From a phage, in sequence record PZ452582.1: DNA of 64,000 nucleotides, one strand, 5' to 3'. This document shows positions 4,611-57,958 of this stretch, in pieces. The notes below the pieces were generated by a model. The model was not told where the DNA came from. It saw nothing but the letters and a program-made list of their open reading frames with translations, and searched no databases. The position numbers were made by a program, and so were the translations under genes. Every line of letters begins with the position of its first letter. The first letter of the stretch is position 1.

Positions 4611-5216
4611 ATGAAAATGCAAAGTGATTTCAATTCAATGTTTGAAGAGTTCCAAAGACAGGTTGATGTTCCAGACCAATTATTAAATGCTCTTAAACGT
4701 ATGGCAGAAGGACGTAATTATTATTGGGGTTCTTCATATGAAACTGATGAAAGTCTTTCTGGATTTTATAAAGGTAAAAAGTCTTTAATACGTCCTGGAA
4801 TACTTATTAACAGTATTGAATCAATTCATTTATTAACATGCGATTTTGACGTTGAATTTACTGATTTTGTTTCTCCTGAATGGACGGTCTGTTATTTAAA
4901 CGACGATTATGATTATCTTGGCGTTTATAGTTTAAGTGATGCATGGTTTAAACGTAATTTACAAAAGTCAAATTTATTCTATATTGATACTACTGTAAAA
5001 TTTCAGGGCAAGAAATATTTCTTTACTCTTATAGTTGATTCTGAAACGAAGCATGAAAATAAACGTATTCTTAGTAAAAAGAATATCTTAACTATTGTCG
5101 ATGATCTTTTTGATAAATTCGTAGAAAATCCCAATTTTGAAAGCGATTTATTATTAGAAAAATTTGTGAAGGAATGCAGAGAATATGTCAAAGCCATCAA
5201 TGTATCTTCCAAGTAA
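4611..5216 (+). CDS. hypothetical protein (201 aa)
   Basis: SD ggagtaagtagga; C-terminal FVKECR motif shared with the three downstream genes. Confidence 0.6.
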   Translation: MKMQSDFNSMFEEFQRQVDVPDQLLNALKRMAEGRNYYWGSSYETDESLSGFYKGKKSLIRPGILINSIESIHLLTCDFDVEFTDFVSPEWTVCYLNDDYDYLGVYSLSDAWFKRNLQKSNLFYIDTTVKFQGKKYFFTLIVDSETKHENKRILSKKNILTIVDDLFDKFVENPNFESDLLLEKFVKECREYVKAINVSSK

Positions 5217-13100: not shown

Positions 13101-13682
13101 ATGGCGAGTTTAATTTTTACTTATGCAGCAATGAATGCTGGAAAATCTGCTTCTCTTTTGACTGCTGCACATAATTATAAAGAACGTGGAATGAGTGTAT
13201 TAGTTCTTAAGCCTGCTATTGATACTCGCGATTCTGTCTGTGAAGTTGTTTCTCGCATTGGAATTAAACAGGAAGCGAATATTATTACAGATGATATGGA
13301 TATTTTCGAGTTCTATAAATGGGCTGAAGCACAAAAAGATATTCATTGCGTATTTGTAGATGAAGCTCAGTTTTTAAAAACTGAACAAGTGCATCAATTA
13401 AGTCGAATTGTTGATACATATAATGTTCCTGTTATGGCTTATGGATTAAGGACTGATTTCGCTGGAAAATTGTTTGAAGGTTCTAAAGAACTTTTAGCGA
13501 TTGCAGATAAACTTATTGAACTAAAGGCAGTTTGTCATTGCGGCAAAAAAGCGATTATGACAGCTCGATTAATGGAAGATGGAACACCAGTTAAAGAAGG
13601 TAATCAAATCTGTATTGGTGATGAAATTTATGTTTCTTTGTGTAGAAAACATTGGAATGAATTAACTAAAAAGCTCGGTTAG
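13101..13682 (+). CDS. tk: thymidine kinase
   Basis: 193 aa; P-loop NAGKSASLL; strong similarity to recalled T4 Tk. Confidence 0.95.
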   Translation: MASLIFTYAAMNAGKSASLLTAAHNYKERGMSVLVLKPAIDTRDSVCEVVSRIGIKQEANIITDDMDIFEFYKWAEAQKDIHCVFVDEAQFLKTEQVHQLSRIVDTYNVPVMAYGLRTDFAGKLFEGSKELLAIADKLIELKAVCHCGKKAIMTARLMEDGTPVKEGNQICIGDEIYVSLCRKHWNELTKKLG

Positions 13683-14664: not shown

Positions 14665-14693
14665 TTTACTTTCCGTTTGAGCTGTGGTACTAT
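14665..14693 (+). promoter_or_regulatory. early promoter (TTTACT-17-TACTAT)
   Basis: GTTTAC motif; shares ggtactatacaactatc leader with other copies. Confidence 0.65.
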
Positions 14694-15115: not shown

Positions 15116-15310
15116 ATGCTAACACGCGAACAGTTTGAAAAAATCATTAAATTAGCACGTGATATTGAAATAGATTCATATCAATTAGCAGTTGAGCATT
15201 GTGAAGGATATTCATACGACGGTATAGAAGCAGCTAAAAAGGATTTGGATAAATCTAAAGCTAAGTTAGTTCAATATCTTGAAATGATTAGGTGGAATAA
15301 TGAAAACTGA
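15116..15310 (+). CDS. hypothetical protein (64 aa)
   Basis: ATG ORF. Confidence 0.5.
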   Translation: MLTREQFEKIIKLARDIEIDSYQLAVEHCEGYSYDGIEAAKKDLDKSKAKLVQYLEMIRWNNEN

Positions 15311-15473
15311 AAAGCAGATGTTTTTAATGAAACTAATTGAAGAATATGCTAATGCAGTTTCTGACTATGAGTATTCTGCTCGGGAAAGAGGCACAGCTTT
15401 CGCAAAAGAAGAAATGAAAATCATGGTTGATGCTCACACAAAGCTTCAGAATTTTATTGAAAACGTCATTTAA
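15300..15473 (+). CDS. hypothetical protein (57 aa)
   Basis: ATG overlapping upstream gene end; below track cutoff. Confidence 0.4.
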   Translation: MKTEKQMFLMKLIEEYANAVSDYEYSARERGTAFAKEEMKIMVDAHTKLQNFIENVI

Positions 15474-15476
15474 TGG

Positions 15477-15505
15477 TTTACAAGTTGGCAAGGTTATGGT
15501 ATAGT
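15477..15505 (+). promoter_or_regulatory. early promoter (TTTACA-17-TATAGT)
   Basis: GTTTAC motif. Confidence 0.6.
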
Positions 15506-15637
15506 AATCTTGTCAACTGTCAAGGAGAAGAGAATGAAAATTTTGTTTGTTGTGTATGTGATGATTCAATATAATTACCCAATGTTTACTTATAATCTGG
15601 TGAACAACATTATTGATATGATTCAGAGGAGTATACA

Positions 15638-16183
15638 ATGATGAGTGAGGCGAAACGATTAGTATTAGAAGTTAGTTCACTTTTTGGTGAATTGGCTATA
15701 GAAAAAGTAAATAATATGTATCGTTTGACACAAGAAGACGATATGCTATATTTTACGCCTAACGAAATTGTTCGTTTAACCCAAATTGAAAATTCTTATA
15801 CTGATAAAATTGTAAGCATTAATGATGAGCATAAAATTCATTTCTATTCTTTATGCCCAGGATTTAATATTGAAAGCGAGTCAATATGCTTATCAATTAA
15901 TAATTGGGATAATTTTATAACTAAGATTAAATATTTTTATTATTCTAATGAAAGAAAACATAGTTTAAAATGGTTTAAAAATTGCAATGCTATTATTACT
16001 AACGCTTGCAATCAGAATGATGAAACTGTTTTAAACGTATCAAAATGTTATGAAGATGGAGATGTCTTAACTATTCGTCAAATTGATGATTTTCGATCGC
16101 ATATTGTCACATTTACCAAAGACGAAGCTATTGCACTAAAGACTTATCTTGATTCTGTTATTCCAACTATGATTTCAAAGTGA
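15638..16183 (+). CDS. hypothetical protein (181 aa), paralog of 16190-16711
   Basis: Shared motifs GFNIE(S/D)E and C-terminal (A/E)(L/M)(K/I)(T/K)YL(D/T)(S/T)V(I/T)P(T/S)M. Confidence 0.6.
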   Translation: MMSEAKRLVLEVSSLFGELAIEKVNNMYRLTQEDDMLYFTPNEIVRLTQIENSYTDKIVSINDEHKIHFYSLCPGFNIESESICLSINNWDNFITKIKYFYYSNERKHSLKWFKNCNAIITNACNQNDETVLNVSKCYEDGDVLTIRQIDDFRSHIVTFTKDEAIALKTYLDSVIPTMISK

Positions 16184-16189
16184 GGAAAT

Positions 16190-16711
16190 ATGTTTATTTC
16201 AAGTGAAAGCGGTTTAATTCGTGTTGAATTTAAAAATGACATCTTTCTTAGTCAAGGAGATGATATTATTAAAATGAGTTATGACGAAATCAAGAAAATT
16301 TGTCATACTCTTGAAAGCCGTGGAAAAGTAAATGCTGTTATTGACATCGGTGATTTATGGGTAACACTTTATGAAGTATCCGAAGGATTTAACATTGAAG
16401 ATGAAAATAACATTTTAGCTATTGATAAAAGAAGTGATTTGTTTGATGTATTAAAAGTTTATGAACAGTCAAACGGTGGAAGAAAAGCTGTATTGATTTA
16501 TCAAAAACCACATTCGTGTGGAACTGCTTCAATCATTTCAAATATTGAAGGCGAAGTTGATACTTATATGTGTGTTTTAAAAGCCGGTGGTGACCGTCAT
16601 CCGGATTTTATTTCTATTCGTCAAAACAATGGAGAAATTTCATTATCAAAATCAGAAGCTGAAGCTATGATTAAGTATTTAACAACCGTTACGCCTTCAA
16701 TGAAAGGATAA
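16190..16711 (+). CDS. hypothetical protein (173 aa), paralog of 15638-16183
   Basis: SD gtgagga; shared motifs with upstream gene. Confidence 0.6.
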   Translation: MFISSESGLIRVEFKNDIFLSQGDDIIKMSYDEIKKICHTLESRGKVNAVIDIGDLWVTLYEVSEGFNIEDENNILAIDKRSDLFDVLKVYEQSNGGRKAVLIYQKPHSCGTASIISNIEGEVDTYMCVLKAGGDRHPDFISIRQNNGEISLSKSEAEAMIKYLTTVTPSMKG

Positions 16712-16713
16712 TT

Positions 16714-17175
16714 ATGATTATTAATGAAAACTCTTGGCACTATAAATTATTCAAATTGTTTAACGATGAATGGCAACGACCTAAGACACTATGCGCATAT
16801 TTTTGGTCTATTGCCATTCCTATATTTTTCGTTTCTATTTTTGGGTGTGCTATACTCGTAGGGCTAACAATTATTTGTGCAGAAAGCCTACAACGCTGGC
16901 TTATTTTTGGTAGTTTATGGACTCTTATTCCATCAGCATTTATACTTGCCATTTTGCTTGTTTTACTTATTATTGGTTCATTTGTTATTCCTGCACAACT
17001 GCATGAAAAATATAAAGATTATAAATGGAAAAAGGATTATGCTTTACATGTAGAAAATATTGATAGGGCGTATAAAGGTTTACCTCCTATTCAACCCAAG
17101 AAATCTATTATCGTCGAATTTTTAAAAGCGCGTAAAGCTAAAGTATGTCCTGTTATTGAATATAAGGCTGAATGA
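16714..17175 (+). CDS. membrane protein (153 aa, 3-4 TM helices)
   Basis: Long hydrophobic segments; overlaps next gene (ATGA). Confidence 0.6.
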   Translation: MIINENSWHYKLFKLFNDEWQRPKTLCAYFWSIAIPIFFVSIFGCAILVGLTIICAESLQRWLIFGSLWTLIPSAFILAILLVLLIIGSFVIPAQLHEKYKDYKWKKDYALHVENIDRAYKGLPPIQPKKSIIVEFLKARKAKVCPVIEYKAE

Positions 17176-18185
17176 TGAAAACAGTAATGAAAAGCTATTT
17201 TGGTAGTCATCTTTATGGAACTTCTACTCCAGAATCTGATGTAGATTTTAAAGAAATCTTTGTTCCTCCTGCTCGCGATATTCTTATCGGAAATGTTAAA
17301 GAGCATATGAGCAAAAACACTAACAATACATCATCTAAAAACACTAAAGATGATATTGACCATGAACTATACAGTCTTAAATATTTCTTTAAATTAGCAG
17401 CAGATGGTGAAACTGTAGCATTGGATATGCTTCACACTCCACCTGAACTAGTGGTTAAATCTGATTTGCCTGATGTGTGGAAGTTTATTCAAGACAACCG
17501 TTCTCGTTTTTATACGACTAACATGAAATCCTATTTAGGATATGTCCGCAAGCAAGCTTCTAAATACGGTGTCAAGGGTTCTCGTTTGGCTGCATTACGT
17601 GATGTATTGAAAGTAGTTAATCAAATCCCCGAGCAATGGGTTGATTACCAAGAAGACGGTTCCATTAAGCAGCGTCGCACTAAAGTTGAAGATATTAAGC
17701 ATCGTCTTCCAGAAAACGAATTCTGTGAATGGGTGTTCCATAATCATGAGAAAACAGGCCCACAAACGTTCTACACTGTGTTGGGTCGTAAATATCAGAC
17801 AACGCTTTCTCTTATTGAGCTTAAGCAGTCACTGAACAAATTAGATGCTGAATATGGTGAACGTGCTCGTAAGGCCGAAGCCAATGAAGGTATTGACTGG
17901 AAAGCTCTGAGTCATGCTTGCCGTGGTGGACTCCAACTATTGGAAATTTACAAAACTGGTGACTTGGTTTATCCACTCAAAGATGCTCCATTTATTCTCG
18001 ACGTGAAGTTGGGTAAACATCCATTTAAAACGGTTCAAGAGTTTTTGGAAGATGTGGTCGATCAAGTAGAAGCAGCATCTACTGAAGCTTCTAAGAACGG
18101 TATGCAGCAAAAAGTAGACATGGGTTTCTGGGATGACTTCCTTGAGAAGGTCTATCTTGAAAACCACCGAAGTTATTATAAATGA
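17172..18185 (+). CDS. nucleotidyltransferase-fold protein (Pol-beta superfamily-like), 337 aa
   Basis: N-terminal GSHLYGTSTPESDVDF matches the G-S-x(n)-[DE]-h-[DE] NTase signature. Confidence 0.6.
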   Translation: MMKTVMKSYFGSHLYGTSTPESDVDFKEIFVPPARDILIGNVKEHMSKNTNNTSSKNTKDDIDHELYSLKYFFKLAADGETVALDMLHTPPELVVKSDLPDVWKFIQDNRSRFYTTNMKSYLGYVRKQASKYGVKGSRLAALRDVLKVVNQIPEQWVDYQEDGSIKQRRTKVEDIKHRLPENEFCEWVFHNHEKTGPQTFYTVLGRKYQTTLSLIELKQSLNKLDAEYGERARKAEANEGIDWKALSHACRGGLQLLEIYKTGDLVYPLKDAPFILDVKLGKHPFKTVQEFLEDVVDQVEAASTEASKNGMQQKVDMGFWDDFLEKVYLENHRSYYK

Positions 18186-18187
18186 TA

Positions 18188-18211
18188 GGGAGCCTTCGGG
18201 CTCCCTTTTTT
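18188..18211 (+). terminator. rho-independent terminator (UUCG tetraloop)
   Basis: gggagcc-ttcg-ggctccc plus TTTTTT. Confidence 0.8.
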
Positions 18212-18236
18212 ATTTCAAAAATTTTTCACAAAACTG

Positions 18237-18265
18237 TTTACAAGCATAAAGCTTTATGGTACTAT
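18237..18265 (+). promoter_or_regulatory. early promoter (TTTACA-17-TACTAT)
   Basis: GTTTAC motif; conserved ttttcacaaaac upstream and ggtactatacaactatcaa downstream. Confidence 0.65.
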
Positions 18266-18303
18266 ACAACTATCAAAACAAATGAGTAAATTGGAGATAC
18301 AAA

Positions 18304-18504
18304 ATGACTACTTTGAATAAACGTTTCGGTAAAGCTAAATCTGGTTGTGCAGCTGAACGTCGTTATGTTTTCGCTCAGTTAGAAGATGTAGAGTATCAGA
18401 TTAATCAAGTTCACATTACTGGTATCGAGCCTATGTGTGGCCTTGAAGCTCTTCGTGAAGTTCGTGACGGGTATCGTCGTGCCATCGAAGAAATGTCAAA
18501 ATAA
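18304..18504 (+). CDS. hypothetical protein (66 aa)
   Basis: SD ggag; ATG ORF. Confidence 0.5.
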   Translation: MTTLNKRFGKAKSGCAAERRYVFAQLEDVEYQINQVHITGIEPMCGLEALREVRDGYRRAIEEMSK

Positions 18505-55308: not shown

Positions 55309-56648
<1,340 letters not shown>

Positions 56649-56649
56649 C

Positions 56650-56674
56650 TGCTTACATATTCAAATGATATAAT
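56650..56674 (+). promoter_or_regulatory. possible MotA-box middle promoter (TGCTTAC ... TATAAT)
   Basis: cTGCTTAca followed 13 bp later by TATAAT; box deviates from consensus. Confidence 0.35.
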
Positions 56675-56708
56675 TATTTAACTTATTAATGAATTGAAAG
56701 GAAAAATA

Positions 56709-57227
56709 ATGGCTCACTTTAATGAATGTGCTCATTTGATCGAAGGTGTTGATAAAGCAAATCGTGCATATGCTGAGAATATTATGCACAATATTGACCC
56801 ACTGCAGGTTATGCTTGACATGCAGCGGCATTTACAGATTCGTTTGGCTAATGATAAACCAGAAACAAATCGTCATCCTGATTCACTTGAAACTGCAGGA
56901 GAAGTTCTTGCTTGGTTGCGAAACCAAGACGATTATATCGCAGATGAAACCCGCGAGTTATATACTTCTCTTGGTGGTATGAGTAATGGCGAAAAAGAAG
57001 CTTCTGCTGTATGGAAACCTTGGAAGAAACGTTATTCTGAAATGCAATCCAAGAAAATTCAAGATTTATCTCCCGAAGATCAGCTTGAAATTAAATTTGA
57101 ACTTATTGACCAATTTCATTTTTTCATGAATAAATTTATTGCTCTTGGAATGTCAGCTGAAGAAATCTTTAAACTTTATTACCTGAAAAATGCTGAAAAC
57201 TTCGCTCGTCAAGACCGAGGTTATTAA
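56709..57227 (+). CDS. 56: dCTPase/dUTPase gp56 (MazG-like)
   Basis: 172 aa from ATG 56709 (SD aagga); matches recalled T4 gp56 N-terminus MAHFNECAHL. Confidence 0.9.
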   Translation: MAHFNECAHLIEGVDKANRAYAENIMHNIDPLQVMLDMQRHLQIRLANDKPETNRHPDSLETAGEVLAWLRNQDDYIADETRELYTSLGGMSNGEKEASAVWKPWKKRYSEMQSKKIQDLSPEDQLEIKFELIDQFHFFMNKFIALGMSAEEIFKLYYLKNAENFARQDRGY

Positions 57228-57421
57228 TGGCTCGTTTAAATAAGCGTCAGCTTAAGAAAGCCCATAAGAAACGTATTGACCAGCTATTTAAAGATTATAA
57301 CAAAGAGCTCGTGTGTGAGCTCTTAACTAATCAACTTCGTATGGTTGAAATTATAGAAGGTCCTGACGAAATTTTTGTCAGTGAAGAAGCTTTAAAATTA
57401 ATTATAGAGCATTCAAAATGA
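57227..57421 (+). CDS. hypothetical basic protein (64 aa)
   Basis: ATG overlapping upstream stop. Confidence 0.5.
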   Translation: MARLNKRQLKKAHKKRIDQLFKDYNKELVCELLTNQLRMVEIIEGPDEIFVSEEALKLIIEHSK

Positions 57422-57627
57422 AATTTGATTTTTATGCATGGCAAAAAGCTGGGAGACCAGCTACTCGAGCATTTGGTTCTGATGGATATAATATTAGAGC
57501 CCATTGGAAATTTAATGCTCCAGAAGATTATTCTCCGGTAATTATTAACGGCGATGTTGTTATATTAACTAAAATCGGGTATTTTAACGTTCCGCGAGAA
57601 TTTATTATAAATAATCATGTAATTTAA
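57418..57627 (+). CDS. hypothetical protein (69 aa)
   Basis: ATGA overlap. Confidence 0.5.
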   Translation: MKFDFYAWQKAGRPATRAFGSDGYNIRAHWKFNAPEDYSPVIINGDVVILTKIGYFNVPREFIINNHVI

Positions 57628-57643
57628 ATAAAAGGAGAATTAC

Positions 57644-57889
57644 ATGGCTAGTACTCGCGGTTATGTTAATATTAAAACATTTGAGCAGAAATTAGATGGA
57701 AATAAGAAAATTGAAGGAAAGGAAATTTCTGTAGCTTTCCCTCTTTATTCTGACGTTCACAAAATTTCTGGTGCTCATTACCAGACGTTCCCTTCAGAAA
57801 AAGCAGCATATTCTACAGTATATGAAGAAAATCAACGTACTGAATGGATTGCTGCAAATGAAGATTTGTGGAAAGTAACTGGTGAATAA
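57644..57889 (+). CDS. soc: small outer capsid protein Soc
   Basis: 81 aa, matches recalled T4 Soc; SD aaggag. Confidence 0.9.
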   Translation: MASTRGYVNIKTFEQKLDGNKKIEGKEISVAFPLYSDVHKISGAHYQTFPSEKAAYSTVYEENQRTEWIAANEDLWKVTGE

Positions 57890-57895
57890 ATGCAA

Positions 57896-57918
57896 GGACT
57901 CCTTCGGGAGTCCTTTTT
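57896..57918 (+). terminator. rho-independent terminator (UUCG tetraloop)
   Basis: ggactcc-ttcg-ggagtcc plus TTTTT. Confidence 0.8.
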
Positions 57919-57929
57919 CATTTAAACGG

Positions 57930-57958
57930 TTTACATATCAAAATGAGTATGGTATAAT
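57930..57958 (+). promoter_or_regulatory. early promoter (TTTACA-17-TATAAT)
   Basis: GTTTAC motif, consensus -10. Confidence 0.7.

Follow-up and report, generated by a model that had tools for sequence, protein, structure and literature searches.

The closest characterised relatives of the protein at the centre of this work are two RlaP enzymes of Pseudomonas, PfRlaP and PaRlaP. The crystal structure of PfRlaP consists of an N-terminal nucleotidyltransferase domain and a C-terminal helical domain. Both enzymes extend RNA 3'-OH ends by one or two nucleoside monophosphates, with a preference for damaged RNAs, and through their action over-trimmed tRNA can regain aminoacylation after ligation; RlaP has been proposed to counteract 'smart' ribotoxins, RloC among them, as an antidote, and in the same study NrdC.11 of phage T4 was named as a member of the RlaP family (PF10127), placed in cluster 5 of a sequence similarity network, apart from the studied enzymes of cluster 1a (bioRxiv 10.64898/2025.12.29.696909). 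Phage RlaPs have been reported to co-distribute with RNA ligases (Iyer et al., PMC7824862). Here, we describe an early transcription unit that ends in an nrdC.11 orthologue and whose four larger genes lie at 15638–18185 of a 64,000-nucleotide stretch of phage DNA (sequence record PZ452582.1), referred to below as the window.

The T4 counterpart of this locus contains mobD, an HNH homing endonuclease gene (PMC2988022). T4 mobD.1 is expressed early both as RNA and as protein, nrdC.11 has an early RNA and a protein classed as 'middle', and mobD.2 has an early RNA and a protein that was not detected (PMC9697503 supplement). The block from nrdC.11 to mobD.3 can be deleted (PMC9825161). The region described here is the early transcription unit of a T4-like phage in the order mobD.2, mobD.1 (gene 1), a mobD.1 paralogue (gene 2), a protein with two transmembrane helices (gene 3), and nrdC.11 (gene 4); the two mobD.1-type genes belong to the y05I family. 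A 2.9-kb stretch (window 15400–18300) has matches in 747 phage records; its DNA identity to Escherichia phage vB_Eco_T-01 is 98.8%, which assigns the window to Tequatrovirus. Every component of the unit is already sequenced and catalogued, in the case of T4 NrdC.11 as a named RlaP member. It is noteworthy that name bleed has given many genes of this locus wrong names in databases: 'thioredoxin' is a frequent label of NrdC.11, one NrdC.11 record is labelled 'putative HNH homing endonuclease', and mobD.x open reading frames (ORFs) are mislabelled 'molybdopterin-guanine dinucleotide biosynthesis protein MobD'. For the annotation of NrdC.11 and the mobD.x genes, evidence-based names now replace these widespread wrong ones.

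Gene 4 (17172–18185, + strand) encodes a protein of 337 amino acids that is 98% identical to T4 NrdC.11, the T4 annotation of which starts at the second ATG (17175). Judged by its sequence, it belongs to the RlaP family as a long-form Pol-beta-type nucleotidyltransferase. Its score with the Pfam model RlaP (PF10127, 'RNA repair pathway DNA polymerase beta family') is 44.1 bits (cut-off, 23; E = 2.6e-11), the match extending over residues 7–135 of the protein and positions 23–142 of the 249 in the model, and the protein is a member of PHROG 388, 'nucleotidyltransferase'. The nucleotidyltransferase motif, GSHLYGTSTPESDVDF, occupies residues 11–26. An exhaustive search for the NrdC.11 family yielded 3423 representative clusters, and the RlaP match was above threshold in 42 of 42 diverse relatives sampled. 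In 146 diverse representatives, G11 and S12 are conserved in 100%, D23 and D25 in 99%, D63 in 97% (the rest having E), D85 in 96%, and D61 in 95%; several C-terminal residues (R231, K244, H248, R251, and K279) are conserved as well. When NrdC.11 is aligned with a canonical short RlaP by BLASTP (E = 2e-8), the GS and DxD motifs align, D63 pairs with an aspartate, and D85 pairs with a glutamate. At the level of sequence, the signature hG[GS] ... DxD and a third carboxylate are thus intact in NrdC.11. The Pol-beta core with GS, DxD, and the third aspartate is what NrdC.11 has in common with canonical RlaPs such as PfRlaP and PaRlaP; it differs from them in belonging to a longer subfamily (~310–340 amino acids) with a distinct C-terminal part of 200 amino acids.

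RNA repair is the most recurrent functional theme in the surroundings of bacterial NrdC.11-type genes. In a sample of 80 bacterial and archaeal loci retrieved with an NrdC.11-type alignment, whose homologues are 33–54% identical, 13 carry RNA-repair genes within 5 kb of the homologue, mostly abutting it and on the same strand. These neighbours comprise Hen1 and Pnkp genes preceding the nucleotidyltransferase gene in that order, RtcB, and Ro60/TROVE. In at least 12 bacterial loci (L097, L099, L111, L114, L121, L128, L144, L146, L147, L148, L161, and L165), a long NrdC.11-type gene (310–335 amino acids) is followed by a translationally coupled gene for a short canonical RlaP (252–289 amino acids, full-length Pfam match), and some of these tandems (e.g. 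L144 and L128) adjoin Hen1–Pnkp, RtcB, or Ro60 genes. Such tandems could mean that nucleotide restoration takes two enzymes, perhaps as a heterodimer, of which T4-like phages would have kept the long half only. A second, rarer bacterial setting of the NrdC.11-type gene also occurs, in which a UDG-superfamily protein (~516 amino acids) and a ResIII/SNF2-type helicase are encoded 3' of it (L098, L100, and L108; the helicase only in L104).

We consider it on balance probable that the early unit ends in an RNA-repair counter-defence enzyme, NrdC.11, and that the genes upstream of it are accessory. NrdC.11 would be made early in infection and would add one or a few nucleotides, in an untemplated manner, to RNA 3'-OH ends. 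Its likeliest substrates would be tRNA halves that have been cut and trimmed by host anticodon nucleases, and functional RNA would then be resealed by Pnkp and RNA ligases that the phage encodes at other sites of its genome; it is this succession of extension and resealing that would make NrdC.11 a counter-defence enzyme of RNA repair. Judging from the family, the catalytic residues, and the bacterial operon context, the restoration of RNA ends against host ribotoxins appears to be the best-supported function of NrdC.11.

Several observations weigh against this assignment. RNA-repair neighbours are lacking at 67 of the 80 bacterial and archaeal loci, an RNA ligase or Pnkp gene lies within 5 kb of the nucleotidyltransferase gene in only 1 of 78 phage loci, and no homologues of RnlA, RnlB, or PseT were found in the 64-kb window. 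The RlaP biochemistry is that of the short canonical subfamily and not of the long NrdC.11 type; phages carry the long form only, so that the short RlaP partner that is frequent in bacteria is missing in them. Only the N-terminal 130 residues of NrdC.11 fit the RlaP model, the C-terminal 200 amino acids being specific to the subfamily. The AlphaFold2 model, built from a shallow alignment of 16 sequences (78–99% identity), has a predicted local distance difference test score (pLDDT) of 53 and is not usable: the nucleotidyltransferase domain came out unfolded, with a score below 50, although the C-terminal part was predicted to be helical. Sequence and profile searches of the PDB with the nucleotidyltransferase (as a single sequence, a 12-sequence profile, and a 42-sequence profile) gave no relevant match, and it is sequence that speaks for the fold and the catalytic triad.

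It is possible, and we put this forward as a tentative alternative, that the long NrdC.11-type nucleotidyltransferase is an enzyme with a function of its own and not just another RlaP, and that a y05I C-terminal domain protein (y05I-C) and the two-helix membrane protein, with its invariant SWH, LC, and CP residues, form a conserved membrane-anchored pair in Tevenvirinae. What interest remains in the locus attaches to this pair and to the long RlaPs as a subfamily of their own. It seems unlikely that NrdC.11 nucleotidylates a target other than RNA ends (a protein, a small molecule, or a DNA end, for instance) in the manner of other minimal Pol-beta nucleotidyltransferases. The fit of the core alone to RlaP and the unique C-terminal domain would agree with such an activity, as would the occurrence of long and short forms side by side within bacterial operons, an indication of non-redundant activities; the UDG-like protein and ResIII helicase neighbours in 3–4 bacterial loci and the NAD+ salvage genes that flank the nucleotidyltransferase gene in several distant phages point in the same direction. 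However, RNA repair is the only neighbour theme that recurs (13/80 loci), and the closest characterised relatives accept RNA and not other E. coli macromolecules.

The linkage of the upstream genes to nrdC.11 was surveyed in 78 phage loci from IMG/VR ranked by nucleotidyltransferase identity. At nearly every locus in which the nucleotidyltransferase is at least 60% identical, a y05I-related ORF lies directly upstream of the membrane-protein gene. Tequatro-, Mosig-, Dhaka-, and Gaprivervirus have the full-length version of this ORF; in the other loci, it encodes a C-domain-only protein of 70–80 amino acids and is sometimes duplicated. Between the membrane-protein gene and the nucleotidyltransferase gene lie 0–3 unrelated small genes. 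In Jiaodavirus, Gelderlandvirus, and Karamvirus, genes of 180–190 amino acids in this interval were considered as y05I and rejected since they have no Pfam match; the y05I-related gene of these genera is the C-domain-only ORF of 70–80 amino acids upstream of the membrane-protein gene. Below ~59% identity, the nucleotidyltransferase gene mostly occurs without the y05I and membrane-protein genes. The numbers of phage records are nested, with 1518 for the nucleotidyltransferase, 860 for the membrane protein, 728 for gene 1, and 461 for gene 2.

A natural deletion separates the parts directly. In L015 (IMGVR_UViG_2974742932_000001), a T4-like contig of 170 kb, a clean 1.85-kb deletion at 4983–5013, corresponding to window 15310–17155, has removed the promoter, mobD.2, both y05I paralogues, and the membrane-protein gene; the nucleotidyltransferase gene is kept. 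At the junction, a mobD.3-like ORF is joined directly to nrdC.11, and the aligned blocks overlap by ~30 nucleotides. An obligatory co-occurrence of the nucleotidyltransferase with a membrane partner is not observed: T4, L015, and most loci below 59% identity carry the former and lack the latter. The pattern of loci, the nested record counts, and L015 together indicate that the stable pair is y05I-C plus the membrane protein and that the nucleotidyltransferase gene is an older, independent element. The upstream genes are therefore separable accessory genes on a shared transcript and not obligatory partners of the nucleotidyltransferase, and the y05I paralogues are more tightly linked to the two-helix protein than to the nucleotidyltransferase. 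The pair could modulate the nucleotidyltransferase or sense the same host attack.

These data bear on the idea that the cassette encodes one physical machine, in which the two-helix protein would tether the y05I proteins, as nucleic-acid binders, and the nucleotidyltransferase to the inner membrane, for example to act there on RNA or DNA ends. The single transcript and the tight spacing of the genes would fit such a machine, and so would the order y05I (or y05I-C), membrane protein, ..., nucleotidyltransferase at nearly all loci with a nucleotidyltransferase at least 60% identical, the fold that the y05I N-domain shares with binders of single-stranded DNA and RNA, and the electrostatic complementarity of the acidic y05I proteins (isoelectric point, pI, 4.4–5.1) with the basic tail of the membrane protein (pI 9.5). 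The reading is nevertheless unlikely: T4-like genomes conserve gene order generally, unrelated genes of variable kind intervene between the membrane-protein and nucleotidyltransferase genes, components have been lost independently (T4 and L015), and the acidic surface of y05I speaks against nucleic-acid binding.

In distant T4-like phages, whose nucleotidyltransferase is 44–55% identical, the NrdC.11 homologue is found between two genes of NAD+ salvage (NARP2). The loci in question are L056–L058, L061, L062, L064, L066, L068–L071, L073, L075, L076, and L083. A gene for a NUDIX-containing protein of ~352 amino acids, NatV-like by its size, lies 0.16–3 kb upstream of the nucleotidyltransferase gene in 11 loci, and NAMPT lies 1.4–2.7 kb downstream in 8, both flanks being present in L057, L061, L069, and L076. 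The NARP2 paper does not mention a nucleotidyltransferase, and the proximity may reflect only a shared accessory or anti-defence region.

Genes 1 and 2 lie at 15638–16183 and 16190–16711 of the + strand and encode y05I-family proteins of 181 and 173 amino acids. They are 27% identical to each other over 176 amino acids (BLASTP, E = 4e-12), and gene 1 is 88% identical to T4 MobD.1. Both match the Pfam domains T4_y05I_N and T4_y05I_C (PF24449 and PF24448), gene 1 with 139.4 and 74.3 bits and gene 2 with 116 and 80 bits against cut-offs of 24.9 and 27, and both are in PHROG 1502. Their alignment reveals GFNIE(S/D)E and a C-terminal KxEAxAhxxYLxxVxPxM in common. Structure modelling predicts that the N-terminal domain is formed by two beta-beta-beta-beta-alpha repeats of the PC4-like/Whirly/PUR fold. 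The C-terminal domain is possibly a third repeat, although its model has a pLDDT of 50–70 and the sequence signal is weak (hhalign of repeat 1 against repeat 3, E 6.5e-4, probability 27%). Foldseek searches with the y05I model found nothing significant in the PDB and only the family itself in BFVD. Gene 2 occurs in 461 phage records, nearly all of Tequatrovirus, and a y05I alignment search of IMG/VR found only 6 close loci. The protein P0131 (contigs up to 9.5 kb), which corresponds to window 15638–16711, is a natural chimera: its N-terminal two thirds resemble gene 1 and its C-terminal domain resembles gene 2, the outcome to be expected if the tandem paralogues recombine and the DNA between them is lost.

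Proteins of the PC4-like/Whirly/PUR class (Pur-alpha, MRP1/MRP2, plant Whirly p24, and the phage protein ChmC) are 4–11% identical to y05I, i.e. they have no sequence similarity to it. Pur-alpha has two repeats and an extra one, as in the y05I architecture. The third repeat of Pur-alpha dimerises; the y05I paralogues probably pair via their C-terminal repeat. The two families differ in charge: the nucleic-acid binders of the PUR/Whirly class are basic, whereas the y05I N-domains are acidic (net charges of -7 and -9; pI 4.7 and 4.4), the conserved y05I residues are largely acidic or polar, and a basic/aromatic binding surface is not found. A protein-binding role, as in SsgA/B, would be equally possible. 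It is improbable that the y05I paralogues are transcription factors and that the cassette mainly regulates phage or host expression. The Pfam description, 'putative transcription factor', the early expression, and the fold shared with Pur-alpha and the plant Whirly/PBF-2 transcription regulators (PMC7549692) agree with such a role; however, the Pfam name is itself predicted, the proteins are highly acidic and conserve acidic residues, the fold is also used by SsgA/SsgB, which do not bind nucleic acids, only a few enterobacterial T4-like genera have members of the family, and the genes are deletable.

Gene 3 (16714–17175, + strand) encodes a protein of 153 amino acids with two hydrophobic helices at approximately residues 27–55 and 63–93, as estimated from hydropathy. 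The predicted topology is N-in/C-in; the N-terminal tail is short, and the C-terminal tail, of 59 amino acids, is basic. The protein belongs to PHROG 944, 'membrane protein' (2.6e-50), and no family in the Pfam search covers it. Its motifs are SWH (residues 7–9), P..LC.YFW (23–31), and K.CP (143–146). In 12 diverse homologues (among L016–L088), the residues S7, W8, H9, P23, L26, C27, Y29, K143, and C145 are invariant, and the conserved residues are all on the two predicted cytoplasmic tails, a distribution that may point to a common metal or disulphide site or to a surface for binding. Gene 3 is present in 860 phage records from several Tevenvirinae genera and is absent from T4.

The initial annotation had seen in genes 3 and 4 an arrangement like that of nucleotide-signalling and counter-signalling modules. 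The Pol-beta-type signature that it read in gene 4 agrees with the RlaP match and the conserved GS, DxD, and aspartate residues. It is nevertheless very improbable that the nucleotidyltransferase produces or degrades a nucleotide second messenger and has the membrane protein as effector or partner. Such a module is favoured by this signature, by the 4-nucleotide ATGA coupling of the two genes in Tequatrovirus, Mosigvirus, and Gaprivervirus, and by the position of the nucleotidyltransferase gene between known anti-defence (NAD+ salvage) genes in some distant phages, but the protein has no match to a PADLOC defence model or to a CD-NTase/SMODS-type Pfam family, it fits best into RlaP, a family in which the characterised enzymes work on RNA ends, the membrane-protein gene is missing in T4, L015, and most phages with a nucleotidyltransferase below 59% identity (1518 records against 860) and is split from the nucleotidyltransferase gene by 1–3 unrelated genes in other genera, and the bacterial homologues are found in RNA-repair operons and not beside effectors. 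For the cassette proteins in general, PADLOC and NCBIfam models gave no match, and the Pfam search found no CD-NTase/SMODS-type family in the nucleotidyltransferase.

Examination of window 15300–18400 revealed five closely packed ORFs, all on the + strand. The four genes described in the initial annotation are all present where it had placed them, but it had overlooked the first ORF of the unit, the mobD.2 orthologue (15534–15641, + strand), which encodes 35 amino acids, matches PHROG 3515 (E 1.7e-21), and is syntenic with T4 mobD.2. Of its other readings, the paralogy of the first two genes, with the two shared motifs, is borne out by the BLASTP match and the common Pfam domains, and the description of a multi-helix membrane protein coupled to the nucleotidyltransferase holds for the membrane protein and the ATGA overlap but gives way to only two hydrophobic helices. 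The overlapping starts and stops that it reported are limited to two junctions, mobD.2/gene 1 (ATGA at 15638) and gene 3/gene 4 (ATGA at 17172); genes 1 and 2 are separated by a gap of 6 nucleotides and genes 2 and 3 by a gap of 2. The Shine-Dalgarno regions of mobD.2 (AAGGAGAA, window 15520–15533) and mobD.1 (AGAGGAGT, 15624–15637) contain GGAG, and those of genes 2–4 do not. GGAG is the motif cut by RegB, the early-mRNA endoribonuclease of T4.

The unit is bounded, as the initial annotation had proposed, by an early promoter and a terminator. The promoter (15477–15505, + strand), identified by a consensus scan, is of the sigma-70 type with an extended -10 element and reads TTTACA-17 nt-TATAGT, the -10 element being preceded by TGg; it is one of the 16 places on the + strand of the window that fit the T4-type early-promoter pattern TTTAC-N15-17-TGnTAnnnT. 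The intrinsic terminator, which the scan places at 18187–18212 on the + strand (18188–18211 initially), has the sequence AGGGAGCC-TTCG-GGCTCCCT followed by T6, with a GC-rich stem of 8 bp and a UUCG loop; its RNA fold has an energy of -17.7 kcal/mol (z = -3.86). Another early promoter lies upstream at 14665, and read-through transcripts into the cassette are possible because no terminator was found between it and 18187. A motif scan found neither late promoters (TATAAATA) nor MotA-box middle promoters inside the cassette. Downstream, a second early-type promoter (18237–18265, TTTACA-17-TACTAT) precedes an ORF of 66 amino acids (18304–18504, PHROG 6200). This ORF, with no counterpart in T4, occupies the interval between nrdC.11 and nrdC.10; the homology with T4 ends just past the second promoter, and the spacing between nrdC.11 and nrdC.10 in related loci ranges from 70 to more than 2000 nucleotides.

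In T4, the mobD.2, mobD.1, and nrdC.11 genes (T4 55,435–57,932) share their order, strand, promoter, and terminator with the window. In the DNA alignment, the promoter is kept with two substitutions, both in the spacer, and the terminator is identical. The initial annotation had raised the possibility that the cassette consists of well-characterised T4 genes; genes 1 and 4 do correspond to T4 mobD.1 and nrdC.11, but both are uncharacterised, and genes 2 and 3 have no T4 counterpart. The difference lies between mobD.1 and nrdC.11, where T4 has mobD and the window has genes 2 and 3; the HNH ORF that is the feature of the free-standing homing-endonuclease locus is absent from this slot in the window. 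Homology to T4 extends across the stop codon of mobD.1 and the Shine-Dalgarno sequence of gene 2 to the end of the fifth codon of gene 2; it then breaks and resumes at the start of nrdC.11. In T4, what is left of gene 2 forms an ORF of 23 codons (MFISSGTDMCYKCKAKLNETKNQ, followed by a stop) at 13209–13285 of L001 (T4 57,208–57,284), and the TGA of this ORF overlaps the ATG of mobD. Since T4 retains a stub of gene 2, the T4 arrangement is the derived state, in which mobD has replaced genes 2 and 3. The 23-codon ORF is possibly a leader that couples mobD translation to the initiation signals of the displaced gene 2. T4-type mobD (at least 95% identity) occurs in 47 phage records, compared with 461 for gene 2 and 860 for gene 3, and the window has the common, mobD-free configuration. 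It is thus the reference phage, T4, that shows a homing endonuclease displacing two accessory genes.

NrdC.11 is a very widely conserved gene product of T4-like phages and now has a concrete, testable candidate role. The proposed context of this role is the tRNA repair system of T4, in which PseT/Pnkp and Rnl1 counter the anticodon nuclease PrrC and the cleaved tRNA is healed and sealed. Within this scheme, an RlaP would restore the nucleotides lost to trimming nucleases such as RloC. The T4 nrdC.11 gene lies ~50–80 kb from pseT, rnlA, and rnlB. If the proposal is true, NrdC.11 extends the classic Pnkp/Rnl1 tRNA repair of T4 to those anticodon nucleases that also trim nucleotides.

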